64,000 nt of DNA from a virus: positions 1-64,000 of IMG/VR virus record IMGVR_UViG_3300037420_001736; one strand, 5' to 3'. The position numbers were made by a program, and so were the translations under genes. The notes below the pieces were generated by a model. The model was not told the origin of the DNA. It did not search any database and worked only from the letters and a program-made list of their open reading frames with translations. Shown piece after piece: positions 50,893-64,000 of the stretch. Every line of letters begins with the position of its first letter. Within the stretch, counting starts at the first letter, position 1.

Positions 50893-52629
50893 ATGGACAA
50901 TGCCGCCTCCGTAGCGTTCAACCCTGGCGCCCCGGCCGATGAGCGCTATGACGCGCAGGCCGAGCTCCAGAAAGCCCACGCGCCGCGCTCGCTGGGCGAC
51001 CTGCTGATCCCGCCGGCCGAGCTGCAGCCGGTGATCGATCACATCCGCAACGACCTGGAGGAGCAGGCGATGACGAAGGCGCTGGCGAAGCGCAACGTCA
51101 TCCCCTTCCCGTCGACCGCGGTCAAGCAGCGCAAGCCCGGCATGCAGTCGGTCTGGCTGGACGACCTGCAGGTGCAGGTGATGGGCGACTGGTACGAGCG
51201 GCCCAGCGCCTTCAGCTTCGACATGATGCGCTCGATGGTCACGCAGACGCCGGTGCTCAACAGCGTGATCATGACGCGCCAGCGCCAGGTGCAGCGCTTC
51301 TGCCGCCCGCAGTCCGGCGGCAAGGGTCCGGGCTTCAAGATCGCGCTGAAGGACCAGGAGGCCCAGCCTGGCGACGACGAGAAGTCGTCCATGCTGCTGC
51401 TGCAGGACTTCTTCACACACTGCGGCTGGGAGAAGCGGCCGCGCCACCGCATGCGCCTGAAGCGCGACGACTTCGCCACCTTCATGGCGAAGCTCACGCG
51501 CGACACGCTGACCATGGACTCGATGCCGATCGAGACCGAGTGGAAGCGCGACAAGAGCCTGGGCCTGGACGGCATGTATGCGGTCGACGGCTCCACCATC
51601 CGCCTGTGCACCGAGAACGGCTACCGCGGCGACGACGAGATCGTCGCGCTGCAGGTGGTGCAGGGCAACATCCGCGCGGCCTACACCTGCGAGGACCTGG
51701 TCTACGTGCCGCGCAACCCGCTGACCGACGTGCTGGCCGGCGGCTACGGCCTGAGCGAGACCGAGCTGCTGGTGCGCACGGTGACGGGCTTCCTGAACGC
51801 CTTCACCTACAACACCAAGTATTTCGACTCCAACGCCATCCCCAAGGGGATGCTGCACCTGACCGGCAACTTCGACAGCACCGACATCGCGGCCTTCAAG
51901 CGCCAGTGGAACGCGATGGTCAAGGGCATCAACAACGCCTGGGCGCTGCCGGTGATGATCTCCAAGGACGCCGAGTCGAAAGCGGCCTTCGAGAACTTCG
52001 GCGTCGAGGTCAACGAGATGCTGTTCGGCAAGTGGATCAGCTTCCTGGTGAGCATGATCTGCGCGATCTACGGCATGGCGCCGGACGAGATCAACTTCGA
52101 GAGCTTCACCACCGGCACCAGTTCGCTGTCTGGCAGCGACACCGAGGAGAAGCTGATCAACTCGAAGGACAAGGGCCTGCGGCCGCTGCTGTCCTACTAC
52201 GAGAACCTGTTCAGCGACTATGTCGTCGCGGAGTACGGCGACAAGTATTGCTTCCGCTTCACCGGCCTGGACGACGAGGACCCGAAGGCGGTCGAGGAGC
52301 GCCGCAAGAACGGCATGACGTGGAACGAGTACCGCGCGCTCGACGACCTGCCGCCGGTCGAGGGCAAGCTGGGCGACGCGCCGATGAACCCGACGCTGAT
52401 TGGCGCCTGGCAGGCCGAGAACCAGCAGCCCGAGCAGGACTTCGGCCAGCCCGGCGCGATGCCGCCTGGCGAGGACGACGACGGCGAGGAGGGTGGCGAG
52501 GACTTCGGCGAGGCCGGCCCCGAGAACGACACCGGCGCCGACTTCGGCGAGGGTGACGACGACGCGCAACCGGGCCCGGACGAGCTCGCCAAGACCTTCG
52601 GCCTGCCGGTGTTCCGCCCCGAGCCATGA
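50893..52629 (+). CDS. Portal protein
   Basis: 578 aa, with an acidic G/D/E-rich C-terminus. Precedes the MuF-like gene. Called from size and position. Confidence 0.7.
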   Translation: MDNAASVAFNPGAPADERYDAQAELQKAHAPRSLGDLLIPPAELQPVIDHIRNDLEEQAMTKALAKRNVIPFPSTAVKQRKPGMQSVWLDDLQVQVMGDWYERPSAFSFDMMRSMVTQTPVLNSVIMTRQRQVQRFCRPQSGGKGPGFKIALKDQEAQPGDDEKSSMLLLQDFFTHCGWEKRPRHRMRLKRDDFATFMAKLTRDTLTMDSMPIETEWKRDKSLGLDGMYAVDGSTIRLCTENGYRGDDEIVALQVVQGNIRAAYTCEDLVYVPRNPLTDVLAGGYGLSETELLVRTVTGFLNAFTYNTKYFDSNAIPKGMLHLTGNFDSTDIAAFKRQWNAMVKGINNAWALPVMISKDAESKAAFENFGVEVNEMLFGKWISFLVSMICAIYGMAPDEINFESFTTGTSSLSGSDTEEKLINSKDKGLRPLLSYYENLFSDYVVAEYGDKYCFRFTGLDDEDPKAVEERRKNGMTWNEYRALDDLPPVEGKLGDAPMNPTLIGAWQAENQQPEQDFGQPGAMPPGEDDDGEEGGEDFGEAGPENDTGADFGEGDDDAQPGPDELAKTFGLPVFRPEP

Positions 52630-54245
52630 TCAAACCCAAGCTGCAGAAGCAGCCCCAGGCGCAGCCGCGCGACGTCGCACTCGGTGATGAGCTCTACGTG
52701 CACCACCGCGGCCAGCCGCACACCTGCCGCGTGGTGGCGCACGGCGCGCACGGCGTGACGGCCGAGATCGAGGGGCAGCATCACAAGGTCACCTGGGACA
52801 AGGTGCTCGGCCACAAGAGTCGCCGCATGCTGCGCTACGCGATCGCCGACCAGGGCGAGGACGGCATGATCCTGGAGGATGACGCCGGCACGCGGCGCTA
52901 CGTCGCCACCCCCAACGAAGCGAGTGAGGACCCCTACGTGGCGAAAGCGTTCGAGGGGCGGCGCGTCGCGCTGCTGCTGAAGGCCGAGGAACCTGGCGGC
53001 AGCGGCGCCGCGCCGCGCGCCGGCCTGGCGAAGAAGCAGATCACCGACCGCACCGGGCGCAGGCAGACCAAATGGGTGCGCACGAACAAGGACCAGCCGA
53101 AGCCGCGCCAGGCGGCCGCCGAGGATCCGCGCGGCGCGCAGCGCGGCTACGGCACGCACAACCTCGGCGCCGGCGACACCGTGCACTTCGCCGCCGGCGA
53201 CTACCAGGGCAGCGGCACGATCGTCGGCAAGCCGGGCGCCGACGGTGCGCACGTGAAGGACGCCAGCGGCCGCGTGCACCAGGTGCGCTGGAGCGAGGTG
53301 ACCGGCCACGAGCCGGCCGCTGATGTCGCAAAGCCCAAGGTGCAGCCGCAGGTGCGCGGCGAGCAGAAGCCGGTGCCGGCCGCCGAGTTCATCGCCAGCG
53401 ACTATGCCGCGCAGCACAACGACGCGGGCGTGACGGCCGAGGCCATCCTGGCGCAGTTCCCGGCCGACACGATGGAAAAGATCAGCGCCGTGCAAGAGCG
53501 CCTGCACAGCGTCGAGCAGACCATCGAGCTCTACAAGCAGGGCGACACCTACGACGACGAGCGCACGAAGATCCACCAGCGCATCTACGACCACTTCCTG
53601 TCGCCGCAGAAGGTCGAGGCGGCCACGCCGCCCGAGGGCCAGAAGCCGACGCTGACGATGCTTGGCGGCCGCGGCGGCTCCGGCAAGAGCTGGTTCGCCG
53701 GCCAGGTCTACGACCCGGGCAAGGCGATCGTCATCGACCCGGACGAAATCAAGGGCATGCTGCCCGAGTACGAGGGCTGGAACGCGCACCAGGTGCACGA
53801 GGAGTCGAGCGACATCACCAGCACCATCCTGCAGATCGCCGAGGAGCTGGGGCTGAACGTGGTGCTCGACGCGACGATGAAGACCGCCAAGAGCACGCTG
53901 GGGATGGCGAACAAGTTCAAGGCCAAGGGCTACCGGCTGGAGGCGCACTACATGCACCTGCCGCGGCAGGAGGCCGCCAAGCGCGCAGTGCAGCGCTTCC
54001 TCGGCAAGACCCAGCGCTACGTGCCGGTCGATGTGGTGCTGGGCAACACCGGCAACGAGGCAACCTTCGACCAGGTGCGCCAGCTGGCCGACAAGTGGTC
54101 GTTCCGCGACAACAACGTGCCGATGGGCCAGCAGCCGATCCTGATCAGCGAGAGCGGCAGCGGCGCCACGCCGGCGCAGCCTGGCGGCGGCCAGCCTTTG
54201 ACCAAATCCGAGCAAGCTGCGATCATCCTGTTCAGGAGAACGTGA
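52626..54245 (+). CDS. Zeta-toxin-like P-loop kinase domain protein with N-terminal repeat modules
   Basis: TLTMLGGRGGSGKSWF (Walker A) ...IVIDPDEIK...VVLDATM. Two ~45-aa repeats, each ending in ..H(K/Q)V(T/R)W..V.GH. Confidence 0.65.
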   Translation: MIKPKLQKQPQAQPRDVALGDELYVHHRGQPHTCRVVAHGAHGVTAEIEGQHHKVTWDKVLGHKSRRMLRYAIADQGEDGMILEDDAGTRRYVATPNEASEDPYVAKAFEGRRVALLLKAEEPGGSGAAPRAGLAKKQITDRTGRRQTKWVRTNKDQPKPRQAAAEDPRGAQRGYGTHNLGAGDTVHFAAGDYQGSGTIVGKPGADGAHVKDASGRVHQVRWSEVTGHEPAADVAKPKVQPQVRGEQKPVPAAEFIASDYAAQHNDAGVTAEAILAQFPADTMEKISAVQERLHSVEQTIELYKQGDTYDDERTKIHQRIYDHFLSPQKVEAATPPEGQKPTLTMLGGRGGSGKSWFAGQVYDPGKAIVIDPDEIKGMLPEYEGWNAHQVHEESSDITSTILQIAEELGLNVVLDATMKTAKSTLGMANKFKAKGYRLEAHYMHLPRQEAAKRAVQRFLGKTQRYVPVDVVLGNTGNEATFDQVRQLADKWSFRDNNVPMGQQPILISESGSGATPAQPGGGQPLTKSEQAAIILFRRT

Positions 54246-54406
54246 TGGACAAGAACGTCAAGCCGGAGCAGTTCGACGGCTACGATTGCCAGGAGCGGCC
54301 GCCGCTGTCGGACGCCTACCGCAAGAAGGCGCTGCCGCAGCACCTGCAGGACAAGCTCGCGAAGCGCGGCGCTGAAAAGCCGACTGAACCGCAGGGGAAT
54401 GCTTGA
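54245..54406 (+). CDS. Small hypothetical protein
   Basis: TGATG overlap. MDKNVKPEQFDGYDCQERPPL. 53 aa. Confidence 0.4.
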   Translation: MDKNVKPEQFDGYDCQERPPLSDAYRKKALPQHLQDKLAKRGAEKPTEPQGNA

Positions 54407-54432
54407 TCGAATTTGATCAGCGCCTGCAGAAT
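54403..54432 (+). promoter_or_regulatory. Promoter-like element with embedded palindromic box
   Basis: TTGATC, 17-18 nt, then CAGAAT. Box TGATCGAATTTGATCA at 54404-54419. Confidence 0.5.
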
Positions 54433-54568
54433 CGGCACCAACGACAGACGAGAGGTCGCTACCAGCAGACAGCCCTCAACCAGATGCGGGCCCGGCATGG
54501 AGTCCGGTGTCCCAACAAGCTGGCCGAAAAGCACTGCTGACTGCCGGGGGAAGGGCCTGGCAACGAAT

Positions 54569-54645
54569 TGTGGAGTAGCGCAGCACGGTAGCGCGCCAGG
54601 CTCATAACCTGGAGGTCGCAGGTTCAAGTCCTGCCTCCGCAACCA
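54569..54645 (+). tRNA. tRNA(CAU): tRNA with CAU anticodon (Met or Ile2), U1-A72, CCA encoded
   Basis: Hand-folded cloverleaf. Acceptor TGTGGAG/CTCCGCA. D stem GCGC/GCGC. Anticodon stem CCAGG/CCTGG with loop CTCATAA. T arm GCAGG-TTCAAGT-CCTGC. Confidence 0.8.
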
Positions 54646-55079
54646 GACAAACCAGCGAAGCAGAACGCGAGAGGGCCAGGGCCTGACGATCCTGGCTAAC
54701 GTACCGGGTGGCGCTGCCGACATCGAACGGCCCCGGCCGCGGAGGAAAACGCGCAAGTGCGATCGTCAGGCTGCGGGGCGTCACCCCACCAGCTGCGGAG
54801 CGCGAGTGAACCTGGTGCACGAGCGGTGAAGCCCCGCGCCGGAGACGTACCCGGACGTGAGAGCCTTCGGGCCCTCACGCATGCGCACAGCGACCACCAG
54901 CCATGCTGGTGGCGTGCGGCGGAAATCGCAGTGCGCAGTCGTGAGAGCCCGCTGAGCTGCAGCTTGGCCCTGCAGCAACCCTGCCTTTCCGGTAGAACGC
55001 CTTCCCTCCCTTTCTCACGCTGCCCATGCGAGCAGCGGGTCTCTCAGCAGACAGCCGCCTTCGGGCGGCTGTTTTGCTT
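54646..55079 (+). ncRNA. Candidate large structured RNA co-transcribed with tRNA(CAU)
   Basis: No credible ORF. Many GC-rich hairpins, two with UUCG loops (GTGAGAGCC-TTCG-GGCCCTCAC; terminator). CCACCAGC-cat-GCTGGTGG. Ends at a strong terminator. Confidence 0.4.
55051..55079 (+). terminator. Rho-independent terminator
   Basis: ACAGCCGCC-TTCG-GGCGGCTGT followed by TTTGCTT. Confidence 0.8.
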
Positions 55080-55342
55080 GCGGCGCCGTCGTGATCGCAC
55101 ACTGATCGCGGCCGCCGGAGCTTTCCTTTCGGCCGGTGGCTGCTGTGTGTGCTGAGAAGGCGCATCAGGGACCCCCAGCTGCGCGTGGGGTAGCGGCTTA
55201 AACACAACGCCAGCAGCAGATCACGGCGACACCCTCTGGGTGGGCCCTCCACGCCGGGGAGCTGCCGACCGAAGTTATGGGGCGGCCGCGTTGGTGGGGA
55301 CCGTGGCGCGGCCGCCCTGGTCGTGACTGCACGATCGGCAGC

Positions 55343-56497
55343 ATGGGCCTGTTCGTCGACCTGATCGCACTCTCCGAGGCGCGCACCAACGCGACGCTGG
55401 AGCTCATGTGCAAGGCCGAACACGGCGACGACGATGCCATCTGGCGCGAGCACGATTCGCCCTACATCCGCCGCCTGATCGAGCTGTTCACGCAGCGCGG
55501 CCTGATGCGCCTTGAGAGCTTCCGCACCGAACTCGTCGCCTGGCTCAAGGGCGAGCGCCACACGCACGCCGGCACCACGATGCCGCGCCCCGAGGGGTCA
55601 ATGCGCCTGTGGACGCCCGAGGAGCGCGGCCTGGTCAAGCTGTACCTGGAGACGCTGCCGCCCGAGCGCTGGACGCTGGACGACCACATGATGATGGTCG
55701 ACTACCTGGTGCAGCGCTACCTGCCCGAGAGCGAGATCCGCACCGAGGCCGAATGGCTGACGACGCGCGCCTCGCTGATGGGCCGCGTGCAGGCCAACCT
55801 GGAGAAGCTGTCGGCCGAGCAGGTCGACCAGGTGCTGCAGGCGCTGCCCACCACGGTGCGCGAGGCGCGCGAGCTCAAGCCGACGGCAAAGCAGCTGGCG
55901 GCCATGGACTTCGCGCGCGAGCGCGCCTGCGAGGCCGTCACGCGCCTGGCCGACGACGCGCGCCACCGCATGCGCTACGTGGTCGCGCAGGACGTCGAGC
56001 GCCGCGTGCTGCGCGTGCCAGACACCTCGCCGCAGGCGCTGGAGCAGCGGCTGTTCGACGAGTTCTCGACGCTCAACCGCGACATGCGGCGCATCGCGGT
56101 CACCGAGGCCGGCAACGCGGCGAACACGGGCTACATCGCCACGCTGCCGCCGGGCCGGCGCGTCAAGCGCACCGAGCAGTACCGCGGCGTGTGCGCCTGG
56201 TGCGCGCGCATCAACGGCCGCATCTTCACCGTCGTTGACCCCTCGAAGGCTGACAAGGACGGCGAGACGGAGGTGTGGGTCGGCAAGGACAACGTCGGCC
56301 GCTCGGCCGCGCCGCGCAAGCGCGTCGGCCAGCTGCTGGTCGAGCGCGAGCCGCACGAGCTGTACTGGGTGGCCTGCGGGACGCAGCACCCGCACTGCCG
56401 CGGCACGTGGCTGCCGGTGGCTGATGACCAGCCTGGGGATGACCCGCAATTCGCAGCATGGCTGAACCAGCTGCTCACGAAGAAGGAGCCAGCCTGA
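55343..56497 (+). CDS. MuF-like (SPP1 gp7 family) head morphogenesis protein
   Basis: Internal ATG MGLFVDLIAL. VTEAGNAANTGY...GVCAWCARINGRIFTV...GTQHPHCRGTW. Confidence 0.75.
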   Translation: MGLFVDLIALSEARTNATLELMCKAEHGDDDAIWREHDSPYIRRLIELFTQRGLMRLESFRTELVAWLKGERHTHAGTTMPRPEGSMRLWTPEERGLVKLYLETLPPERWTLDDHMMMVDYLVQRYLPESEIRTEAEWLTTRASLMGRVQANLEKLSAEQVDQVLQALPTTVREARELKPTAKQLAAMDFARERACEAVTRLADDARHRMRYVVAQDVERRVLRVPDTSPQALEQRLFDEFSTLNRDMRRIAVTEAGNAANTGYIATLPPGRRVKRTEQYRGVCAWCARINGRIFTVVDPSKADKDGETEVWVGKDNVGRSAAPRKRVGQLLVEREPHELYWVACGTQHPHCRGTWLPVADDQPGDDPQFAAWLNQLLTKKEPA

Positions 56498-57681
56498 TGC
56501 TGCTGCTGCTGAAGGCCCACGTGAAGGGCCACATGCGCGCGGGCGTGTTCATCAAGCCGCACGAGGACAAGCGCCGGCCGCAGGTGCTGCTGCGCCCCGG
56601 CGAGCACGTGCACGAGCACCAGCTGACGCTGTTCAACGAGGAGCTGCAGCCGGCGCCACCGACGTTCCACCGCGTCAAGCCGACAGCCGGCAAGCAGCCG
56701 GTGCCGATCGCGCCCGGCCCCGACCTGGCGAGCTACGACAAGGTGCTGGTCGGCTTCAGCGGCGGCAAGGACTCGATCGCCGCCGTGCTGGCGCTGCTGG
56801 AGAACGGCGTGCCGCCCGAGAAGATCGAGCTGCACCACCACGACATCGACGGTGAGGGCGCGACCTTCATGGACTGGCCCGTCACCAAGGACTACTGCCG
56901 CAAGTTCGCGGCCGCGCTGGGCATCCCGATCTACTTCAGCTGGCGCAAGGGCGGCTTCGAGCGCGAGATGATGCGCGACAACCAGCGCACTGCGCCGGTG
57001 GCGTTCGAGAAGCCGGACGGCACCGTCGGCGAGGCCGGCGGCCAGCACGGCCCGCTGGGCACGCGCAAGAAGTTTCCGCAGCAGTCGGCCAACCTCACCA
57101 CGCGCTGGTGCTCAGGCGCCCTCAAGGTCGACGTGATGGCCGCGGCTATCCGCAACCAGGACCGCTTCGATGACGCGCGCACCCTGGTGGTCACCGGCGA
57201 GCGCGCCGAGGAGAGCTCCAACCGCGCGCACTACAAGACCTTCGAGCCGCACCGTGCGCACAGCAGCAAGCGCCACGTCGACCAGTACCGCCCGGTGCAC
57301 GCCTGGAGCGAGCAACAGGTGTGGGATGTGATGCGCGAGCACGGCGTCGTGCCGCACCCGAGCTACCAGCTGGGCTACGGCCGGCTGTCGTGCCGGCACT
57401 GCATCTTTGCCAACCAGAACCAGATCGCGACCAACCAGGCGCTCTACCCAGAGAGCACCGGGAAGATCGCCGCGCGTGAGCAGGAGTTCGGCATCACGAT
57501 CCACCGCAAGGAGGACCTGATGACGCGCGCCAAGAAGGGCACGCCGTACCAGGCCGCGCTCGACAACCCGGAGATGGCCCGCCTGGGCGACTCCACCGTG
57601 TGGGACGTGCCGATCATCGTGCCCAAGGAGCAGTGGAAGCTGCCTGCGGGCGCGTTCGGCGAGAAGGATGGGCCATGCTGA
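56497..57681 (+). CDS. PP-loop / PAPS-reductase-like enzyme with N-terminal leader motif
   Basis: GAAGGAG RBS, TGATG overlap. Leader MLLLLKAHVKGHMRAGVFIKPHEDKRR. PP-loop VLVGFSGGKDSIAAVLAL. C-terminal LSCRHCIF. Confidence 0.75.
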   Translation: MLLLLKAHVKGHMRAGVFIKPHEDKRRPQVLLRPGEHVHEHQLTLFNEELQPAPPTFHRVKPTAGKQPVPIAPGPDLASYDKVLVGFSGGKDSIAAVLALLENGVPPEKIELHHHDIDGEGATFMDWPVTKDYCRKFAAALGIPIYFSWRKGGFEREMMRDNQRTAPVAFEKPDGTVGEAGGQHGPLGTRKKFPQQSANLTTRWCSGALKVDVMAAAIRNQDRFDDARTLVVTGERAEESSNRAHYKTFEPHRAHSSKRHVDQYRPVHAWSEQQVWDVMREHGVVPHPSYQLGYGRLSCRHCIFANQNQIATNQALYPESTGKIAAREQEFGITIHRKEDLMTRAKKGTPYQAALDNPEMARLGDSTVWDVPIIVPKEQWKLPAGAFGEKDGPC

Positions 57682-58286
57682 ACGAGGGGACGATGGACAA
57701 GCAACTCAACTGGCCCGAGCGGCCGACCTGCCACGACGGCGATTGGCAAGCGCGACGCTTCGGTCAGCAGACCTGGCGCGAGCCGCGCGGTGAGCACCGC
57801 GATCCGAAGTACGGGCCCGACCCCTACCGCGAGACCTATCGAACCTGCAGCTACTGCGGCTCGATGCACCCCGAGGACCTGTTCACCGCGCTGCAGGCCG
57901 GCGCGCGCCTGGGCATCACCGACAAGCTCTACAAGTTCTACGTCGAGGGCATCCCGAACCCGAAGGCCGGCGAGGACCTGCCGTGCTACAGCTTCTGCAG
58001 CAAGCCGTCGCCGAAGACCCTGGCCGAGGGCGGCTGGGAGGAGATCGCCGACGGCTACGACGAGCGCACCGGCGCGCCGAAGACCGCCTGGCGCAAGCTG
58101 CACTCGACGGGCAAGTGCCCGCCGACGCTGCCGGCGAAGTGGTACAACGACCACCTGCTGGACCTGGAGCCTGCGACGTTCCAGGCGATCACCGACCTGA
58201 TCGCTCAGCGCACCGGACGCCGGTACTTCGTCGGCGACCGTGGTCAGCTGATGGTGCGCGGCGAGGCCTCGCCCGCCGAGGCCTGA
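57675..58286 (+). CDS. Hypothetical Cys-containing protein
   Basis: MLNEGTMDKQLNWPERPTC...CSYCGSMHPEDL. 203 aa. Confidence 0.5.
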   Translation: MLNEGTMDKQLNWPERPTCHDGDWQARRFGQQTWREPRGEHRDPKYGPDPYRETYRTCSYCGSMHPEDLFTALQAGARLGITDKLYKFYVEGIPNPKAGEDLPCYSFCSKPSPKTLAEGGWEEIADGYDERTGAPKTAWRKLHSTGKCPPTLPAKWYNDHLLDLEPATFQAITDLIAQRTGRRYFVGDRGQLMVRGEASPAEA

Positions 58287-58288
58287 CC

Positions 58289-58444
58289 ATGACCCGCATC
58301 GGCTACATCATCCTCGGCGTGCGCCGCAACGGCCTGCCGATCGCGCCGTCCGAGCTCCACCGCGAGCAGTACAGCAACTGGCACCTGGTCGAGCAGCCCG
58401 ACGGCTCGCTGCGCTGGCGCGGCGAATGGGTGGTGCAGCCGTGA
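58289..58444 (+). CDS. Small hypothetical protein
   Basis: MTRIGYIILGVRRNGLPIAP. 51 aa. Confidence 0.4.
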   Translation: MTRIGYIILGVRRNGLPIAPSELHREQYSNWHLVEQPDGSLRWRGEWVVQP

Positions 58445-59295
58445 TCGCGCTGCTGCTGAAGTCGGCCGTTGCCGCCTACACCCGCCGCGACGGCACCTTC
58501 GTGCCGCCTCATGTTGACAGCCGCACCAAGCAGCAGCGCATGGACGACGACATGGAGGCGCAGGCCGCCTGGCTGACCGCCATGGCGCGCTCGCACGGTC
58601 ACGCCGACGTCGACGCGATGCTCAGCGACGATCCGGCGCTGTTCACGCGCCTGGCCGAGCAGTGGCGCGAGCAGCACCCGGAGCTCGCGAAGGCGATCGA
58701 TCACCTGGCGAAGTCGCACCCGGTGCTGCAGGGGGCCACGCGCGACAAGCGCGACTACAGCCGCGCGCTGATCATGCTGGGCAAGCGCCGCGGCGACCAG
58801 CTGCTGTCGCCTGGCGAGCCGCTACCCGAGGAGGCCGCCACCGGCGAGTACAAGAAGCCCACGGTGAAGTGGGCCGGCCTCACGCTGGCGATCGAGAACC
58901 CGGCCGGCAGCGTGCGCCGCGGCACCAACCGCCATGGCGTCACCTGGGAGGTGCGCTACAAGTTCGCCTATGGCGAGATCCTGGGCAGCATGGGTGTCGA
59001 CGGCGACCCGGTCGATTGCTACCTCGGCCCCAACATGGACGGCGCGCCGATGGTCTACGTCGTGCACCAACGCCAGGTCGGCAACTGGAGCGAGTACGAC
59101 GAGGACAAGTGCATGCTCGGCTTCGACAGCGAGGAGGATGCGCGCCAGGCTTTTCTGTCCTGCTACAACGACCCGCGATTCCTCGGTCCCATCACCGCGA
59201 TGCCGGTTGGTGAGTTCGTCACCAAGGTGCGCGCGACGCGCGAGGCCCCGGCAATGATCAAGGCGCTGCTGTTCAGGCTGCCAGCAGCTGGTTGA
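58441..59295 (+). CDS. Inorganic-pyrophosphatase-like protein with N-terminal leader motif
   Basis: GTGA overlap. Leader VIALLLKSAVAAYTRRDGTFVPPHVDSR. YKFAYGEILGSMGVDGDPVDCYLG parallels PPase YPANYGFIP..DGDPVDVLV. Confidence 0.6.
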   Translation: MIALLLKSAVAAYTRRDGTFVPPHVDSRTKQQRMDDDMEAQAAWLTAMARSHGHADVDAMLSDDPALFTRLAEQWREQHPELAKAIDHLAKSHPVLQGATRDKRDYSRALIMLGKRRGDQLLSPGEPLPEEAATGEYKKPTVKWAGLTLAIENPAGSVRRGTNRHGVTWEVRYKFAYGEILGSMGVDGDPVDCYLGPNMDGAPMVYVVHQRQVGNWSEYDEDKCMLGFDSEEDARQAFLSCYNDPRFLGPITAMPVGEFVTKVRATREAPAMIKALLFRLPAAG

Positions 59296-59662
59296 CCGCG
59301 GCGATGATGACGGGAATCGTCATCGCGATCAGCTCGCGCCGGAAAGCACCCGGCGTGACGCCGGTGTGACGCTTGAACGCCTCATTGAAGTGGCTCTGGC
59401 TGGAGAAGCCACACCGATAGGCGACGTCACCCAACTTGATGGACTGGTCACGCAACAGGCGCTTTGCGACGTCGATGCGGCGCCAGCACACATATCGCAT
59501 CGGCGACTTGCCGACGCACTTAGCGAATCTTCGGCTGAAGTGAAATTGGCTCATAAATGCCACGCGGGCCAATTCATCCAGTGTAATGCGCTCACCAATA
59601 TTGGTATCGATATATTCTAAAGCTCTAGACACGCCGCGTGGCATTGCATTTGTTTTGGTCAT
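59273..59662 (-). CDS. Stand-alone AraC/XylS-family HTH activator (MarA/SoxS-like), moron
   Basis: LDELARVAFMSQFHFSRRFAKCVGKSPMRYVCWRRIDVAKRLL...YRCGFSSQSHFNEAFKRHTGVTPGAFRR. 129 aa. Locally low GC. Confidence 0.85.
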   Translation of the reverse strand: MTKTNAMPRGVSRALEYIDTNIGERITLDELARVAFMSQFHFSRRFAKCVGKSPMRYVCWRRIDVAKRLLRDQSIKLGDVAYRCGFSSQSHFNEAFKRHTGVTPGAFRRELIAMTIPVIIAAVNQLLAA

Positions 59663-59818
59663 GACTCCGGTCTGATTCGGTTAATCCAAATCTAGACTCT
59701 GAATATATTGATAATGTGAATAGGTGAAAGAGATTTATTCTCTCCGTCGGCGCGCGCGGCTGCTGCCGATTCGATCGTGACACGATGATCCCGGGACGCA
59801 CCCCACGGGCCGTCCCTG

Positions 59819-62800
59819 ATGATCATCTTCCTCAAGAAGTCCCAGTTCGCTCTGTTCGATGCGCCGGTGCGCGTGGCGCAGCATGTGCGCAAGGACGGCA
59901 CCGTCGTGGCGCCGCACACGCGCGTGCAGAAGGTGCGCGGCCAGCACCCGCCGTCACATCACCAGGCGCAGGGCGACCTGTTCGGCGACGCGGCGCCGCG
60001 ACAGCACCAGCTGTTCGCCGAGCAGGAGGCCAAGCAGGCGATCGAGCAGGCGAAGAAGCCCGAGCGCGAGAGCCGCGGCCCGGCTGCCAGCGACGCCTGG
60101 GTGAACGAAGGCAAGAGCGCCGACGAGCTGATCCGCGACAAGGCTCACAGGCTGGGCGCCGAGCTGGCCGGCATCATCACCGAGGAGGCGAGCGAGAAGG
60201 ACTTCGCGCCGACCGAACTCCCGAAGGTGATCGCGCAGTGGGCCTCCGAGAACAAGGTGCCCGCCGACGAGCTGCGCCAGGCCGTTTTGGCCTCGCTCGG
60301 CCGGTATGACCTGAGCGAAGGGCGCAAGGCGCAGATTCGCCGCGCGCTGGATCCGACGGCGAAGAAGCCGGCCGCCAATGGCGCTGGATTCGGCACGCTG
60401 TACCACGGCACGCCGAAACCGTTCGATGCCTTCCGCGACCCGACTGGCAGCGCTGACCGCGGCGCCGGCTACAACCACCAGGGCCCGGCCGTCTACCTCA
60501 CGGACGACCCGCACGGCTACGCGCGCTTCTTCGCGCGCGAGGGCGGCGCGAAGCTGGCGTACCAGCTGCAGCGCGAGGGGAAGAAGGACGAGGCTGCACA
60601 GGCCTTCAGTGGCTGGGGCCACGTGCTGTCTGTCAAGCTGGCAGACGACGCGCGCATCCTGGAGCTCGACAAGGCGCCGGCCGAGGTCAAGGACCTGTTC
60701 GAGCGCTCGGTCGGCCATCCCGAGGTCGGCCAGAAGCTGCGCGAGGTGGTGCTGGCGCTGGGCTACGCCGGCCTGGCGTTCACCGAGCCGAACCACCCCG
60801 AGGGCTGGCCGACCAAGGCCGGCGCGCGCACGGTCGCTGTCTATCGGCAGGACAAGGCGATCATCACCGGCGACAAGCCGGCCGCCGAGTACGACCCGAA
60901 GAAGAAACCGGCGCCGACGACGCAGGACGCGATCGACGAGCTCGCCGCCAAGGTCACGCGCTACGCCTCCGGCCTGTCGCGCGCGAAGGACTTCGAGGCC
61001 GCCGGCCACGGCTCGCACCCGGTGGGCGTCGACGTCGGCCAGCTGTCCGACAAGGCGATGGACCAGCTCGCCGACCTGGTGACGCGGCTGCACACGCCGG
61101 TCTTCGTCGACAGCGGCGCCTACAGCCTGTTCCGCTCGCGCGAGAAGCGCCAGGCCGCCGGCGAGGACGTCGAGCCGCTGGACTTCAGCCAGGTGCTGGA
61201 GCGCTACGACCAGCTCACCGACAAGATCGGCGAGAAGAACGAGGCCGAGGAGGACCTGCCCAAGCCCATCCTGGTGATGCCCGACGTCATGGGCGACCAG
61301 GCGGCATCGCTCGACGAGATCAAGAAGCACGCGAAGTGGATCAACGTCGAGTGCAGCTTCGACGTCGCGCGGCCGCTGATCGCGATGCCCAAGGGCGACA
61401 TGAGCCTGACGGCCTACTACGACGCCGTGGTCGAGGCGATCGGCACCAGCCGCTTCATCGTCGGCATCCCGGCTGTGAGCGGCGCCTGGACGCCGGAGCA
61501 GGTCACTGCGTTCCTGCGCGAGCGCGAGCCTGCGCGCGTGCACTTCCTCGGCGCGCTGCACGAGAGCCGGCTGAACAAGTGGCTGGCCGCCGTGGTCGAG
61601 TCAGGCCACCAGCCCGAGATCACCGCCGACGCCAACCCGCTGCGCAGCCAGGTGCTGCCGCGCGACGGCACCAAGCTGGCGCCGGGCGAGCGCGCCAAGA
61701 AGATCACCGACAAGCTGGGCAAGCCGGCCCGAGCGCAGGAGCTCAAGCGCGTGATCGAGCAGCACGGCGGCGAGGATGGCGTGCGCCGCATGCTCGCCGG
61801 CGCCGACTTCGAGCAGCAGCAGCGCTTCATCGGCCTCATTTCCGACCTGTCGGGCAAGCCGCAGATCGAGGTGCGGCACCAGTACGGCCTGGGTGACGGG
61901 CCGGTCGAGGGCGACCGCAAGGTCGAGAACGGAGTCACCTATGTCCTGCGAAACGGACGCTGGCACCGAGCCGGCGATGATGCCGCGGCCGTCGCGCCGG
62001 CGCCGGCGGCTGCCGACACGGGCGCCGACCGCCTGGTGCTGGTCGCGTGCGGCGCCGCTAAAAAGGACGGCGCGCATTCTGCACGGCAGCTTTACACCGG
62101 CGCACTGGCTGGCGTCCTGAACAAGCACCTGCGCCCCGGCAGCGCCGACGTCGCGATCATCTCGGCCAAGCACGGCCTGGTGCACGGCGACCAGGTGATC
62201 GAGAGCTACGACCAGCGCATGACGCCGGAGCGTGCGAAGGAGCTGGCCGCGCAGCCGGTGGACCTGTCGCGCTTCCATGGCAAGCGCTACCGCGAGGTGT
62301 TCATCGCCGGCGGCGCCGACTACCGCGCCGTCGGCGCGGCCTACGTCAAGCAGCTGCAGGACGCCGGCATCGTGGCGGCCGACGCCAAGGTCGACGCCAC
62401 CAGCGGCGGCATCGGCGAGATCCGCGGCCAGCTGGGCGCGTACCTGCGCAGCCTGACGGATGACAAGCTCGATCCGAATCAGGTGCTTTTCCATGGCACA
62501 GGGGCTGACTTCTCCAAGTTCAACGGGCCGGCCTACTTCACGATCAACCGGGGTGTCGCTGAAGACTCTGCCCGCGCTACGGCCGAAGCCTATGGCGGCA
62601 ACGCGCGCGTGATCAGTGCTCGGCTCAGCCTGCGCAATCCGGCGATCGTCTCCGCTGATGAGATCGAAGGCCTGAAGTACGACGACGCCGCTATGCGGCG
62701 TCTGCGAGAAGCCGGGCATGACGGCGCGATGCGGGCTGACCTGCAGGAGGTGTTGGCGTTCGATCCATCGTCTATCGAAACGGTCGGGTCTGAACCGCTT

Positions 62801-64000
62801 TCGCTGCCGGGCCCCACGCGCGCCATCACGCAGGACGAGCTGCGCGCGGCCGCCGAGCGCGCGCCGCACAACCGCGCGGCGCCGTTCGGCGTGCCGGCCG
62901 GCATCAGCAAGGGCGCGCGCCGCGACATCAACGCGCGCGTCGCCCAGCTGGTGGCCGACGGCCAGGTCGACCGCGAGCTGATGCGCCAGTACAGCGGCAA
63001 CGGCGGCTGCGGCGACAGCCTGAACGAGTATTACACCGACCCCGCAGTGGCCCGCGCGATGTGGGACACCATCGGCCGCCTGGGCCTCACGCACGGCACC
63101 GCGCTGGAGCCCAGCTGCGGCACCGGCGTGTTCCTGCACACCGCGCCGGCGGGTTTCCGCGTCACCGGCGTCGAGCTCGATCCGGTCAGCTCGGCCTGCG
63201 CCACCGCGCTGCACGGCGATCGGCACGAGGTGCACACGGCCAGCCTGGAGCGCTTCGCCACCGCCGACAACCGCCAGTTCGACGTCGTCATCGGCAACCC
63301 ACCGTACGGCCCGCGCGGCTTCCTGGCGAAGGACGACAAGGTCGGCATCAGCACGGCCGAGGCCTACTTCACCGACACCGCGCTGGACAAGTGCAAGCCG
63401 GGCGGCATCGTCGCGCTGGTGGTGCCCACCGGCATCATGGACAGCCGCACGAACCTGGCGCTGCGCCGCGAGCTGCTGCGCAAGGGCCAGTTCCTGGGCG
63501 CGCAGCGCATGCCCAACACCGCGTTCGAGCACAGCCACACCGAGGTGACGACCGACGTCGTCTTCCTGCGCAAGCGGCCCGACGACGTCGCCGGGGCGCT
63601 GACGCTGGCCGACGACGAGACGCTGCAGAAGCTGGGCGTGTGGGACGAGGAGTTCCTGGCCGGCACCTACTTCACCGGCCGCGGCGCGCACAACGTGCTG
63701 GGCACGATGGAGGCCGGCTGGCGCGCGAAGGCCGGCATGGGCAACGACATCACCGTCAACGGCTCGATGCAGGGCGTGCCCGAGGCGATCGCCGAGTTCG
63801 TGCCGGATCCGGCCAGCGCCGCGCCGGGCGAGCTGACGGTGCAGCAGGTGGTCGAGGCGCTGCCCGAGCACGAGCGCGACCGCGCGCTGCTGGCGGCCTC
63901 GCGCCTGCCCTACGCCAACACCGCCAAGGTGGGTGACACCAAGGTGGTCGACGGCGTGCAGTACGTGCTGCAGGGCGACCCGCCGCGCTGGCACCGCGTC
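59819..64000 (+). CDS. Giant polyvalent protein (3' partial, at least 1394 aa): leader, two ART-like domains, unknown modules, N6-adenine methyltransferase
   Basis: I translated this frame by hand and it is open from the ATG at 59819 to the window end. It is absent from the track because there is no stop. LYHGTPKPF..AVYLTDD (about 60398). FVDSGAYS (61108). LVLVACGAAKK (about 62035). LFHGTGADF..AYFTIN (about 62488). EPSCGTGVF and VVIGNPPYG (63287). Confidence 0.8.
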   Translation, partial: MIIFLKKSQFALFDAPVRVAQHVRKDGTVVAPHTRVQKVRGQHPPSHHQAQGDLFGDAAPRQHQLFAEQEAKQAIEQAKKPERESRGPAASDAWVNEGKSADELIRDKAHRLGAELAGIITEEASEKDFAPTELPKVIAQWASENKVPADELRQAVLASLGRYDLSEGRKAQIRRALDPTAKKPAANGAGFGTLYHGTPKPFDAFRDPTGSADRGAGYNHQGPAVYLTDDPHGYARFFAREGGAKLAYQLQREGKKDEAAQAFSGWGHVLSVKLADDARILELDKAPAEVKDLFERSVGHPEVGQKLREVVLALGYAGLAFTEPNHPEGWPTKAGARTVAVYRQDKAIITGDKPAAEYDPKKKPAPTTQDAIDELAAKVTRYASGLSRAKDFEAAGHGSHPVGVDVGQLSDKAMDQLADLVTRLHTPVFVDSGAYSLFRSREKRQAAGEDVEPLDFSQVLERYDQLTDKIGEKNEAEEDLPKPILVMPDVMGDQAASLDEIKKHAKWINVECSFDVARPLIAMPKGDMSLTAYYDAVVEAIGTSRFIVGIPAVSGAWTPEQVTAFLREREPARVHFLGALHESRLNKWLAAVVESGHQPEITADANPLRSQVLPRDGTKLAPGERAKKITDKLGKPARAQELKRVIEQHGGEDGVRRMLAGADFEQQQRFIGLISDLSGKPQIEVRHQYGLGDGPVEGDRKVENGVTYVLRNGRWHRAGDDAAAVAPAPAAADTGADRLVLVACGAAKKDGAHSARQLYTGALAGVLNKHLRPGSADVAIISAKHGLVHGDQVIESYDQRMTPERAKELAAQPVDLSRFHGKRYREVFIAGGADYRAVGAAYVKQLQDAGIVAADAKVDATSGGIGEIRGQLGAYLRSLTDDKLDPNQVLFHGTGADFSKFNGPAYFTINRGVAEDSARATAEAYGGNARVISARLSLRNPAIVSADEIEGLKYDDAAMRRLREAGHDGAMRADLQEVLAFDPSSIETVGSEPLSLPGPTRAITQDELRAAAERAPHNRAAPFGVPAGISKGARRDINARVAQLVADGQVDRELMRQYSGNGGCGDSLNEYYTDPAVARAMWDTIGRLGLTHGTALEPSCGTGVFLHTAPAGFRVTGVELDPVSSACATALHGDRHEVHTASLERFATADNRQFDVVIGNPPYGPRGFLAKDDKVGISTAEAYFTDTALDKCKPGGIVALVVPTGIMDSRTNLALRRELLRKGQFLGAQRMPNTAFEHSHTEVTTDVVFLRKRPDDVAGALTLADDETLQKLGVWDEEFLAGTYFTGRGAHNVLGTMEAGWRAKAGMGNDITVNGSMQGVPEAIAEFVPDPASAAPGELTVQQVVEALPEHERDRALLAASRLPYANTAKVGDTKVVDGVQYVLQGDPPRWHRV

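Follow-up and report, generated by a model that had tools for sequence, protein, structure and literature searches.

Gene content of the portal region

The stretch analysed here, called the window, comprises positions 1 to 64,000 (64 kb) of the IMG/VR virus record IMGVR_UViG_3300037420_001736. The following genes and elements lie in its portal region, with arrows in peptides marking predicted cleavage positions.

50893-52629, + strand: portal gene, 578 aa (Pfam Phage_portal, 3.9e-16; 76% nucleotide identity to the portal gene of Bordetella phage PHB04)
52585-52626, + strand: portal C-terminal tail LAK↓TFGLPVFRPEP, a site-like motif followed by a hydrophobic tail
52626-54245, + strand: post-portal polymorphic effector, 539 aa (Pfam Zeta_toxin, 2.3e-23)
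52959-53084, + strand: junction-like element inside the Zeta-toxin protein, RRVALLLK↓AEEPGG...GLAKKQITDRTGRRQTKWVRT (regex match)
54198-54242, + strand: C-terminal tail of the Zeta-toxin protein, LTK↓SEQAAIILFRRT (sequence comparison with relatives)
55343-56497, + strand: MuF-like minor head protein, 384 aa (AF2 model matches)
56497-57681, + strand: PP-loop enzyme resembling PAPS reductases, 394 aa, of which the first 86 form an extension (Pfam PAPS_reduct, 5e-11)
56497-56517, + strand: PAPS leader element 1, MLLLLK↓A, hydrophobic run plus predicted protease site (sequence)
56518-56577, + strand: PAPS leader element 2, basic hairpin HVKGHMRAGVFIKPHEDKRR (AF2 model)
56620-56634, + strand: QLTLF, similar to beta-clamp-binding motifs, within the extension of the PAPS-like protein (motif match)
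57675-58286, + strand: leaderless 203-aa protein, function not assigned; in L064 and L066 directly after the MuF-like gene
58289-58444, + strand: 51-aa ORF whose stop overlaps the GTG start of the InPase gene
58441-59295, + strand: InPase-domain protein, 284 aa from the GTG or 289 aa from an ATG at 58426 (Pfam PF18823, 1.1e-39)
58441-58524, + strand: InPase leader VIALLLK↓S, then hairpin AVAAYTRRDGTFVPPHVDSR (sequence, regex)
59254-59292, + strand: InPase C-terminal tail MIK↓ALLFRLPAAG, kept in PHB04, L064 and L066
59273-59662, - strand: AraC-family HTH gene, 129 aa, in a low-GC kilobase (Pfam HTH_18, HTH_AraC)
59819-64000, + strand: DarB-like polyvalent protein, more than 1393 aa, running off the window (Pfam DUF6884, N6_Mtase, Eco57I; ART-PolyVal sub-threshold)
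59819-59932, + strand: long-variant leader of the polyvalent protein, MIIFLKK↓S, QFALF and hairpin VRVAQHVRKDGTVVAPHTRVQK (sequence)
59969-60016, + strand: two extra QxxLF motifs in the polyvalent protein, QGDLF (59969-59983) and QHQLF (60002-60016) (motif scan)

The post-portal effector consists of a conserved N-terminal part of about 225 aa followed by a Zeta-toxin P-loop kinase domain, and its PHB04 orthologue keeps both termini but has a RelA_SpoT core. Its tail is kept in PHB04, L012, L064 and L066 despite their differing core domains, and its internal element is kept in PHB04 gp034 and has a stretch of 17 nt identical to DNA of the InPase leader. The portal tail is kept as [LM]xK↓AFGLP[VI][FYL][RK]xxP, ending the protein, in PHB04, Dolphis, L012 and L064-66, and in L011 a protein in which portal is fused to PBECR3 still ends with this tail. 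The longest ORF of the MuF-like gene begins at 55277; however, 55343 is the likely start, because homologues begin at the equivalent of MGLFVDL. Pfam and PHROG searches gave no match for its product, and its AF2 model matched "Minor capsid protein" and "Phage head morphogenesis domain" entries of BFVD (E 7e-6 to 1e-3), so that the MuF assignment of the initial annotation stands at the fold level but not in family searches. Its enzyme identities hold: the PAPS_reduct match is accompanied by a PP-loop fold in the model, with CysH and FAD synthase among the Foldseek matches, and the other two proteins match PF18823 and N6_Mtase/Eco57I/DUF6884, respectively. The PHB04 orthologue of the polyvalent protein has 2098 aa and is followed by a Ulx-like gene. 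The MuF-like gene ends in a stop codon that overlaps the ATG of the PAPS-like gene. The three enzyme genes had been described as consecutive, but the 203-aa gene, whose product has no match in Pfam or PHROG, and the 51-aa gene separate the PAPS-like and InPase genes. GC content in the AraC region is 0.605, against about 0.70 nearby, and the AraC gene is not at this position in PHB04 and L064-66. The peptide MIKALLF beside it, previously read as a fourth leader-like fragment, belongs instead to the conserved C-terminus of the InPase protein: PAMIK↓A plus a hydrophobic tail also ends this protein in PHB04, L064 and L066, with no AraC gene downstream. In the fused proteins P0017, P0115, P0119, P0066 and P0110, PAMIK passes directly into ALLLK-THVSGYTKKDGT.

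Three unrelated enzymes open with the same peptide

Comparison of the translated N-termini confirmed that the PAPS-reductase-like (56497), InPase (58441) and polyvalent (59819) proteins open with the same peptide, as first proposed. The PAPS-like protein reads MLLLLKAHVKGHMRAGVFIKPHEDKRR (56497-56577), the InPase protein (V/M)IALLLKSAVAAYTRRDGTFVPPHVDSR (58441-58524) and the polyvalent protein MIIFLKKSQFALFDAPVRVAQHVRKDGTVVAPHTRVQK (59819-59932). The InPase GTG start overlaps the stop of the 51-aa ORF; gene callers favour the ATG at 58426, which gives the N-terminus MGGAAVIALLLK. A loose hairpin regex matched these three sites only in all six frames of the 64 kb. The leaders share no extended DNA repeat, only a 17-nt identity, and the conservation is thus at the protein level. 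The phage carrying these unrelated enzymes beside its head genes is of about 95 kb.

The shared module has two elements. In element 1 a few hydrophobic residues lead up to [L/M/F]-x-K, with S or A next, and element 2 is a basic beta-hairpin, (H)VxGYTRKDGTxVxPHxDKR, for which the AF2 model of the PAPS leader shows beta strands at aa 8-23, with a mean pLDDT of 88 over the 10-residue block at aa 11-20. The hairpin half is optional among cargo proteins, and the part common to all collected cargo N-termini is h-h-L-K↓[S/A], i.e. element 1. The pattern [MLFIV].K[SAT] falls within the first 20 aa of all 35 N-termini of the cargo set, which was assembled partly by eye, as against 6 of 87 control N-termini. 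QxxLF motifs, which resemble beta-clamp-binding motifs, are present in two of the three tagged window proteins. The hairpin is also found, repeated, in small bacterial proteins that have signal peptides and no known phage role, a counterpoint that makes any function assigned to it tentative.

The module is widespread among cargo proteins of related phages

A profile built from the three window leaders and two metagenomic homologues matched 501 representative proteins at E<=1e-3, 43 of them at E<=1e-10, among 1.84e9 representatives searched, so that the similarity of the leaders is significant in a profile search of the kind originally proposed. The phage-type matches include InPase (14) and ART-PolyVal (9) proteins as well as PBECR3, LPD1, LPD3, NUDIX, ddrB-ParB, Acb1 and Zeta_toxin, and in relatives the module also heads HD, NUDIX, Acb1 and ART enzymes; the idea that unrelated enzymes of the virion cargo carry the peptide therefore extends to many enzymes of the polyvalent repertoire. 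The long-variant leader recurs in PHB04, L012, L064-66, P0095, P0138, P0139 and P0147. Of the closest PAPS homologues listed (P0156-P0187), 29 of 32 carry the leader or a variant, whereas more distant ones lack the extension of about 80 aa; one enzyme family thus occurs both with and without the module, and PAPS-InPase fusions exist. The module is kept across phages of Bordetella, Pseudomonas, Aeromonas, Yersinia and Escherichia of differing GC content, its users being PHB04/Dolphis-like myophages of about 90-98 kb and many uncultured relatives. A search of Pfam gave no model for it. We conclude that the module is a widespread, previously undescribed and reusable head of a cargo cassette.

Short peptides and low-complexity LLLK-type runs could resemble each other in a high-GC genome with hydrophobic protein starts, with no shared function. 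The probability of this is practically negligible given the three unique regex sites in 64 kb, the hundreds of profile matches with consistent architectures and the retention of the module in phages of differing GC. Chance similarity is refuted by the regex sites, profile matches and domain architectures.

Described at first as an N-terminal leader, the module does stand at the N-terminus of many enzymes, but it also lies at internal domain junctions, often in 2-5 copies. These internal copies in polyvalent proteins score as high as the N-terminal ones, and the module lies before or after mapped domains in P0066, P0016, P0028, P0009, P0017 and P0022. An additional [ML].K[SA] is found at most 27 aa upstream of the internal junction in 36 of 57 cases, compared to a background of 9%.

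Tagged genes lie in head or packaging neighbourhoods

Leader-bearing genes have a head or packaging neighbourhood in every informative context. The gene order of the window is repeated in L064-66 and PHB04; L012 has portal, a 627-aa protein, MuF-like and three consecutive leader genes including Acb1, and L017 has five consecutive leader genes and an Acb1 gene before the protease, scaffold and capsid genes. The window layout is thus replicated independently in L012, L017, L064-66 and PHB04. Dolphis, ST4, fHe-Yen8-01 and ECML-606-1 have their tagged genes upstream of the terminase gene, and those of L013 and L020 do not adjoin MuF. As a counterpoint to the general pattern, the leader-bearing gp049 of PHB04 stands alone and distant from the head genes, with about 9 kb between it and the portal gene.

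These data bear on the proposal that an uncleaved leader docks to MuF or portal and so loads separately encoded cargo. The expected clustering was found as far as head and packaging genes are concerned, but adjacency to MuF is not general, as Dolphis and ST4 show. Docking would fit the position of the tagged genes directly after the portal and MuF-like genes in the window, PHB04, L012 and L064-66, as well as the conserved, motif-related tail of the portal protein. However, the tagged genes lie away from MuF in Dolphis, ST4, fHe-Yen8-01, ECML-606-1, L013 and L020, no link of the leader to MuF or portal docking was found, and the MuF-like proteins of PHB04 and Dolphis, scanned for the motif, contain no copy. 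Moreover, the 120 MuF-like homologues listed are nearly all of 375-397 aa, never fused to toxins and have no variable region. Several internal copies per protein would be needless in a docking tag, and the statistical partners of the motif are the scaffold, the protease and the capsid propeptide boundary (see below). We therefore consider docking distinctly improbable.

Element 1 resembles sites in the prohead protease, scaffold and capsid proteins

Motif counts in protease, scaffold and capsid proteins were taken from relatives as proxies, because the window ends before its own copies of these genes. In Dolphis and PHB04, [ML].K[SA] occurs 5 times per protease and 6-7 times per scaffold where 0.3-0.46 are expected, an excess of 12-20 times that none of 2000 composition-preserving shuffles reached. 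Among the other annotated Dolphis proteins, 8 of 24 have the motif, with 10 sites in 7,400 aa (Fisher p = 1.5e-8), and only two of these 8 are tail proteins (sheath, 2 sites; head-to-tail adaptor, 1). The major capsid protein has one motif at aa ~30-37, exactly where its poorly conserved N-terminus joins the conserved body. The pattern in scaffold, protease and capsid also holds in the more distant L017, and the same site motif precedes the conserved C-terminal tails of the portal, Zeta-toxin and InPase proteins. Since the h-h-L-K↓[S/A] of the cargo is the motif of the scaffold, the protease and the capsid boundary, these data implicate the prohead protease and core rather than MuF. Element 1 is a probable cleavage site of the head-maturation protease, with cleavage after K predicted from the motif statistics. 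As a counterpoint, the motif in scaffold and protease could be a capsid-binding repeat instead of a cleavage site.

It could also be argued that internal copies are gene fusions or internal translation starts, M-x-K being an initiator context and the likeness to scaffold and protease a coincidence. Internal junctions often read M-K-K-S-LLVV..., like N-terminal MKKLIV..., and fused and split versions of the same enzymes exist. Nevertheless, many junctions have L in place of M or lack an M entirely (PLKK↓A, PLTK↓S, PLQK↓A), translation cannot begin at the C-terminal tails, which have the same site, and the scores of internal copies, as high as those of N-terminal ones, indicate selection. With a scaffold and protease enrichment far beyond chance in three genomes, this explanation is very improbable.

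A model for processing of packaged effectors

We propose that the module is a propeptide and processing site for packaged effectors similar to the T4 capsid-targeting sequence (CTS), polyvalent proteins being polyproteins, a reading to which we give about an even chance, with cleavage and targeting its inferred steps. The cargo would enter the core of the assembling prohead together with scaffold and protease, and the prohead maturation protease would recognise and cut element 1. The protease would remove the N-terminal hydrophobic propeptides MLLLLK↓, MIALLLK↓ and MIIFLKK↓ and the C-terminal hydrophobic tails K↓SEQAAIILFRRT, K↓ALLFRLPAAG and K↓TFGLPVFRPEP, and would cut fused polyvalent proteins at the same junctions, releasing separate effectors. 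Tagged effectors would be incorporated into the capsid and passed on to the host. Any function of the hairpin likewise belongs to the inferred part of the model. Packaging is supported by the virion-proteome annotation of Yersinia phage fHe-Yen8-01, in which leader-bearing NUDIX and polyvalent ART proteins are labelled particle-associated; this is a database annotation for which we found no underlying paper. Some N-terminal propeptides have only 3-5 aa (MLK↓A in fHe-Yen8-01, MDLMK↓A in ST4), too short to act as a targeting signal alone.

Alternatively, the module could act after injection, the hairpin and QxxLF holding each effector on DNA or on the beta sliding clamp of the host, or stabilising and localising it in the newly infected cell. 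QxxLF fits the published clamp-binding consensus QLxLF (PMC4549789), and of the 32 closest PAPS homologues listed (P0156-P0187), 29 have Q..[LM]F in their extension, as against one site in 37,202 core-domain residues. The three Q..[LM]F sites of the polyvalent protein (1393 aa) all fall within its first 66 aa (0 of 5000 shuffles), some leaderless PAPS homologues begin with MQLSLF or MEQLALF, and one IMG/VR phage has a DnaN clamp gene beside a hairpin protein. In non-PAPS proteins, however, QxxLF follows only 8 of 50 N-terminal and 2 of 58 internal hairpin copies (background 5.6%), a low rate that makes QxxLF effector-specific and places it outside the common module. The hairpin occurs in secreted proteins too, and the K↓[S/A] element and its enrichment in scaffold and protease would be left unexplained. 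A role after injection is compatible with the processing model and does not exclude it, although as an account of the module it seems unlikely.

Comparison with known packaging systems

The cleavage motif of T4 gp21 is L/I-x-E. The predicted site here, [L/M/F]-x-K↓[S/A], differs from this L/I-x-E↓, and the module has no sequence similarity to the T4 CTS. In both systems diverse cargo has a common N-terminal peptide and the protease motif also riddles the scaffold, whereas the module here is also found internally and as C-terminal tails and has an extra beta-hairpin, its targeting and cleavage being predicted. T4 IPI-III and Alt are fast-evolving anti-host proteins loaded into the prohead core by a common short N-terminal peptide that is then removed (PMC3012670), and as these diverse internal proteins have the CTS alone in common, the T4 analogy drawn in the initial annotation is apt. 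The N-terminal 30 residues of P1 DarB act as a CTS and suffice for the packaging of a reporter (PMC9024508). DarB and the polyvalent protein of the window are of one kind (methylase-helicase, then Ulx), but the DarB N-terminus, MNKLSMGVFRCSSVSEILKYIRAITSHRAP, bears no resemblance to the module.

The 2017 paper on polyvalent proteins by Iyer, Burroughs, Anand, de Souza and Aravind (PMC5512222) predicted capsid packaging for a repertoire like the one here (InPase, ART-PolyVal, PBECR, LPDs, DarB-type MTase-helicase, Zeta, RelA/SpoT, NUDIX) in portal/terminase neighbourhoods. A term search of that paper, covering 12 of 34 matching passages, found no junction or leader motif, with 0 occurrences of "linker", and the processing proposed in it is by embedded peptidase domains, whereas the junctions here resemble sites of the prohead protease and separate genes encode part of the cargo. 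In giant phages, ejection proteins of SPN3US lose N-terminal propeptides to the prohead protease, which also loses its own C-terminal piece (PMC10052503), and with SPN3US gp245/phiKZ gp175 the module shares the trimming of packaged proteins, here predicted, at a motif recurring in propeptides (PMC10052503). Their propeptides, however, are of 20-254 aa, unconserved between cargo and cut at A/S/G-x-E, while the predicted removed pieces here are of 3-20 aa and are followed by a common retained hairpin. Lastly, toxins of the MuF (SPP1 gp7) type resemble the present system in their constant and variable parts and in co-delivery with DNA, as illustrated by the post-portal protein with its Zeta toxin here versus RelA_SpoT in PHB04, but among the homologues listed no MuF-like protein of this clade is fused to a toxin, and other, leader-bearing genes carry the variable cargo.

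Genomic setting of the leader genes

The region analyzed covers the head-proximal part of a phage genome rich in GC (~68%), and proteins identical to those of the window are also encoded on a JGI metagenome contig of 95,516 bp. The closest cultured relatives are myophages of ~90-95 kb (Bordetella phage PHB04, Pseudomonas phages Dolphis, Jeremy and Touem01, and Aeromonas phage ST4), and the portal gene has 76% nucleotide identity to that of PHB04. The genes are arranged as follows:

50893-52629, + strand, portal
52626-54245, + strand, 539-aa protein with a Zeta-toxin domain
54569-54645, + strand, tRNA-Met
55343-56497, + strand, MuF-like protein, 384 aa
56497-57681, + strand, PAPS-reductase-like PP-loop enzyme
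57675-58286, + strand, 203-aa protein
58289-58444, + strand, 51-aa ORF
58441-59295, + strand, InPase-domain protein
59273-59662, minus strand, short AraC-type HTH gene
59819 to past the window end, + strand, DarB-like polyvalent protein

The 384-aa protein gave zero matches to Pfam and PHROG, and its alignment to SPP1 gp7 with hhalign had a probability of 0.1%. The best match of its PHB04 counterpart (gp030) was Phage_min_cap2 at E = 0.014, below the cutoff, a Pfam domain was present in 0/120 of the homologues listed, and a PDB fold search with the model was negative. None of the sequence tools (Pfam, PHROGs, hhalign to SPP1 gp7) placed it in MuF, and BFVD was the one source of support: there the AF2 model (pLDDT 82.6) gave 25 matches at E<=1e-3, including 'Minor capsid protein' and 'Phage head morphogenesis domain', with TM values of just 0.2-0.47. 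The gene position, between portal and head genes, fits a minor head protein. On the strength of the model, the protein is best called MuF-like.

The layout of the window recurs independently in L012, L064-66, PHB04 and L017 (L numbers denote related loci). In L012, the portal gene is followed by genes for a 627-aa post-portal protein and a MuF-like protein and then by three leader genes in a row, whose products begin MLLLLK-THVEAYTRKDG (with Acb1), MLLLIK-... and MLIVFAK-SQFPLFDAPVQVAQHVRKDG. The order in L064-66 and PHB04 is portal, Zeta-toxin or RelA protein, Metallophos, MuF-like, (203 aa), InPase, polyvalent, Ulx-like and helicase-polyvalent. L017, a prophage, has five consecutive leader genes and an Acb1 gene ahead of the protease, scaffold and capsid genes. 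Cargo, the effector proteins predicted to be packaged into the capsid, is encoded beside the portal/terminase packaging genes, as expected for polyvalent proteins. The location of the tagged genes after portal and MuF, emphasized in the initial annotation, holds for the window, L012, L064-66 and PHB04 but not for Dolphis, ST4, fHe-Yen8-01, ECML-606-1 and L020, where they lie upstream of the terminase gene. The Dolphis order is portal, MuF-like, protease, cargo-free between, and PHB04 gp049 is isolated, with the portal gene ~9 kb downstream. In fHe-Yen8-01, the tagged NUDIX (gp131) and polyvalent ART (gp129) proteins are labelled 'particle associated protein' in the GenBank annotation; a paper behind these labels was not found in our literature search.

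A shared module in two classes

The leader consists of a hydrophobic run ending in K|[S/A] (element 1; the vertical bar marks a predicted cut position) and a basic beta-hairpin (element 2). The N-termini of the proteins starting at 56497, 58441 and 59819 were confirmed as previously read, and a loose regular expression for the hairpin found 3 sites only over all six reading frames of the 64 kb, namely the three leaders. Their similarity, claimed in the initial annotation, held in a profile search of 1.84 billion representative proteins: a profile of the three window leaders and two metagenomic homologues matched 501 proteins at E<=1e-3, 43 of them at E<=1e-10, mostly with 2-5 copies; the two homologues are matched by construction. 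Since the leaders share only 17 nt at the DNA level, their conservation is at the protein level and a recent DNA duplication was ruled out. No Pfam model for the hairpin was found, just sub-threshold partial matches to DUF5666. In the AF2 model of the PAPS protein, beta strands at aa 8-23 (mean pLDDT 88 over the block of 10 residues at aa 11-20) lead into a linker of low confidence (aa 24-70); the PP-loop core beyond it is modelled with confidence and resembles CysH and FAD synthase.

Mapping of module copies by local HMM in the best 150 of the 501 matches separated two classes. Class A comprises small proteins that have either a signal peptide or regions rich in Ser/Gly, without the LLK element, and with the repeat unit V.VRGYTRKDGTYV.PH.RS(.PDGN..NNWS..GN.NPY); these secreted proteins first surfaced in a search with a 45-aa leader (33 candidates). 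Class B, the phage type, has the consensus h-h-L-[LF]-K-[SA]-H-[VI]-x-[GSA]-Y-T-[RK]-K-D-G-T-[FY]-V-x-x-H-[ED]-D-K-R, and its copies are both N-terminal and internal. Its proteins carry the polyvalent-protein repertoire: by Pfam, InPase (14) and ART-PolyVal (9), and also PBECR3, LPD1, LPD3, NUDIX, ddrB-ParB, Acb1, Zeta_toxin, PolyA_pol and RadC. Further leader loci were sought with a degenerate DNA pattern for GYTRKDGT.

Small signal-peptide proteins of the class A type (homologues P0005-P0007, P0030, P0031 and others) contain 1-5 repeats of V.VRGYTRKDGTYV.PH.RS.PDGN..NNWS..GN.NPY, and some are encoded on viral contigs; IMG/VR loci with such repeat proteins are L031, L036, L047, L048 and L062. 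The hairpin is common to these repeats and the phage leader, and the class A repeat has no Pfam family.

Fused and split cargo units

One module is found on unrelated proteins (PAPS-like, InPase, HD, NUDIX, Acb1, ART, DarB-like and helicase). The leader heads PHB04 gp032 (an HD_4 phosphohydrolase) and the NUDIX enzymes of ST4, Dolphis (gp119), fHe-Yen8-01 (gp131) and ECML-606-1, and is also present on PHB04 gp049 and Dolphis gp116. The PAPS family displays cassette behaviour directly. The leader or a variant was found in 29/32 of the closest PAPS homologues listed (52-100% identity), 27 of these 32 being 380-422 aa long and the others truncated or fused. A further ~90 homologues that are more distant (55-60% identity, covering 81% of the query) lack the ~80-aa extension altogether. 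Three matches (P0172, P0174 and P0180) are PAPS+InPase fusions, and the window PAPS and InPase proteins are single-unit versions of effectors known to be fused elsewhere.

Internal motif copies are situated at domain boundaries, as in P0066, with InPase at 43-167, motif at 181-208, ART at 236-429 and a further motif at 445-457. Such copies fit a propeptide and processing module better than three other readings: that the leader docks on MuF or the portal, as the initial annotation proposed as an alternative to capsid targeting, that the module acts purely after injection, or that the internal copies are relics of fusion or initiation. The motif has 0 copies in the MuF-like proteins of PHB04 and Dolphis, and the MuF-like protein is without a variable region.

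A related arrangement was observed in L011 (16478-19444), where the portal is fused to a PBECR3 nuclease via a junction hairpin (aa 590-614) and the fusion keeps the usual portal tail at its end (PLAK|AIGLPPVLRIE...). The window polyvalent protein has internal G-V-x-Y-V-L-x-x-G-(x)-R-W-H-R motifs (61931-61969 and 63953-63997), and a similar motif, GYYLQGGRWHS, takes the hairpin's place in the ART proteins of ST4, Dolphis and fHe-Yen8-01; motifs of this kind could represent another type of hairpin at junctions.

A putative prohead-protease site

A hydrophobic run followed by K and S or A was present in 35/35 cargo N-termini, a set partly picked by eye, versus 6/87 control N-termini. The hairpin is optional among cargo N-termini, being missing in the InPase of PHB04, L065 and L066, and RWITVHPNG... 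replaces it in helicase-polyvalent proteins. The second large polyvalent protein, of helicase type (L001:27351-27500, and in L064, L065 and L066), starts with h-h-L-L-K|[AS] and then (A)RWITVHPNGPGTEGQPVLIQ where the hairpin would be.

At 36/57 internal junctions a second [ML]-x-K-[SA] lies a few residues upstream (9% background), so that a short hydrophobic peptide would be bracketed by two sites (PAMIK|ALLLK|THV). Site plus hydrophobic tail also forms conserved C-termini in three kinds of protein: the portal (LAK|TFGLPVFRPEP*, the asterisk marking the stop), the Zeta/RelA protein (LTK|SEQAAIILFRRT*) and InPase (MIK|ALLFRLPAAG*). The MIKALLF fragment, previously taken for a fourth leader beside the AraC insertion, is therefore a genuine, conserved C-terminal element of InPase and not debris. 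Docking on MuF or portal, a post-injection role and relic status fit these tails less well than a propeptide does.

The [ML].K[SA] motif was found 5 times in the prohead protease of both Dolphis and PHB04 and 6-7 times in their scaffolds, against only 0.3-0.46 expected, and the observed counts were reached in 0/2000 shuffles. It is present in 8/24 of the other annotated Dolphis proteins (10 sites in 7,400 aa; Fisher p = 1.5e-8), and among the tail proteins only the sheath (2 sites) and the head-to-tail adaptor (1 site) do. The major capsid protein has a single [ML].K[SA] at aa ~30-37, where the variable N-terminus meets the conserved body (K|ALEASNYQTD); this putative capsid propeptide boundary carries [ML]xK[SA] in three relatives, and L017 repeats the protease/scaffold/capsid pattern. 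In HK97, the capsid protein is cleaved at K|S. The distribution of [ML].K[SA] is what one would expect for the cleavage motif of a maturation protease, a pattern also shown by the T4 gp21 and phiKZ/SPN3US proteases (PMC10052503), and from it we infer that the leader's LLK|S/A serves as a site for the prohead protease. The docking, post-injection and relic readings are less consistent with these scaffold and protease statistics as well.

The C-terminal part of the prohead protease (PHB04 L010:11625-12017; Dolphis L002:8521-8910) repeats the capsid segment K|ALEA(S/G)Y.TD...GGAALG..SLD, in apparent mimicry of the mature capsid protein's N-arm.

QxxLF motifs in DNA-acting enzymes

The PAPS and polyvalent proteins carry four QxxLF motifs, all in + strand genes:

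56620-56634, QLTLF, PAPS protein, in the low-pLDDT linker
59843-59857, QFALF, polyvalent protein
59969-59983, QGDLF, polyvalent protein
60002-60016, QHQLF, polyvalent protein

The three in the polyvalent protein all fall within its first 66 aa, which 0/5000 shuffles reach, and Q..[LM]F is present in the extension of 29/32 of the closest PAPS homologues listed, whereas their cores, 37,202 residues in all, yielded 1 site. QxxLF was rejected as a third element common to all leaders: it is restricted to the PAPS family, DarB-like and some ART proteins, and is effector-specific, outside the common module. The motifs fit QLxLF, the beta-clamp-binding consensus (PMC4549789), and their conservation in the N-terminal extensions of PAPS-like and DarB-like proteins suggests that injected DNA-acting enzymes may dock on the host sliding clamp. 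On a 90,100-bp IMG/VR contig, a phage DnaN-type clamp with all three Pfam domains (L049:3565-4731) is encoded directly after a 758-aa hairpin-bearing protein.

A propeptide model and its relation to known systems

The best-supported model is a T4 CTS-like propeptide and processing module on cargo. Cargo units would be brought into the prohead core and trimmed at h-x-K|[S/A] by the prohead protease. Cuts at the junctions would divide fused polyvalent proteins, and the hairpin would be retained after trimming. A post-injection role of the hairpin and QxxLF can coexist with this propeptide model. A wider and rather improbable reading is a 'cassette grammar' for capsid-delivered effectors, in which units would be bracketed by protease sites and hydrophobic plugs, polyvalents would be polyproteins cut in the capsid, and the retained hairpin (with QxxLF in DNA-acting enzymes) would dock on DNA or the host clamp after ejection. 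If true, the module would offer a portable and programmable means to load foreign proteins and release them, valid for a whole clade of phages infecting Bordetella, Pseudomonas, Aeromonas, Yersinia and Escherichia.

As in T4, unrelated cargo proteins share one short peptide; the T4 CTS ends at a prohead-protease motif recurring in the scaffold, and here [ML]xK[SA], the candidate counterpart, is enriched in protease and scaffold and occurs at the capsid boundary. Capsid-targeting or propeptide tags on packaged effectors are already known (T4, P1 DarB and giant phages), and the P1 DarB N-terminus was rejected as a leader homologue, having no similarity to it. No earlier description was found of the leader sequence, of its use both at N-termini and at junctions, of the K|S/A site or of the hairpin, and the leader motif strings did not occur in the literature searched. 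The protein at 59819, with DUF6884, N6_Mtase, Eco57I and a sub-threshold ART-PolyVal in Pfam, resembles the polyvalent proteins of Iyer et al. (2017) in joining several effector domains of the LPD/InPase/ART/MTase-helicase repertoire in one polypeptide; the matching passages listed from a term search of that paper showed no junction or leader motif, and 'linker' had 0 matches.

A conserved, recognisable tag would make virion cargo predictable from sequence in hundreds of uncultured phages, would explain the shuffling of effector domains between fused and split genes, and would give phage engineers a short peptide to load proteins into therapeutic phages. The outcome of the first minutes of infection depends on packaged enzymes of anti-defence and takeover (DarB-like, Acb1, ART, and those acting on alarmones and nucleotides), and to our knowledge their entry into capsids is known for T4 and partly P1 only. 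The QxxLF motifs suggest that, once injected, such enzymes might ride on the host sliding clamp.

Variable genes around the cargo

The post-portal gene (52626-54245; L001:15574-17055 in PHB04) is a polymorphic effector with ~225 N-terminal aa and a C-terminal tail conserved around a core that is a Zeta toxin in the window and RelA_SpoT in PHB04. The conserved N-terminal part has two similar conserved stretches, and the L065 version is only 229 aa long. The ~1.1 kb between the Zeta-toxin and MuF-like genes (54246-55342) contains tRNA-Met only, and the same interval holds HD, Metallophos or small genes in relatives. Between the InPase and polyvalent genes, the AraC-type gene sits within a kilobase of low GC; it is missing from the equivalent spot in PHB04 and L064-66. 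Cargo genes nevertheless have AraC-family neighbours in Dolphis (gp100), L013/L014 and ST4, in the last case immediately upstream of the ART polyvalent gene, and the link between AraC and cargo may therefore be no accident.
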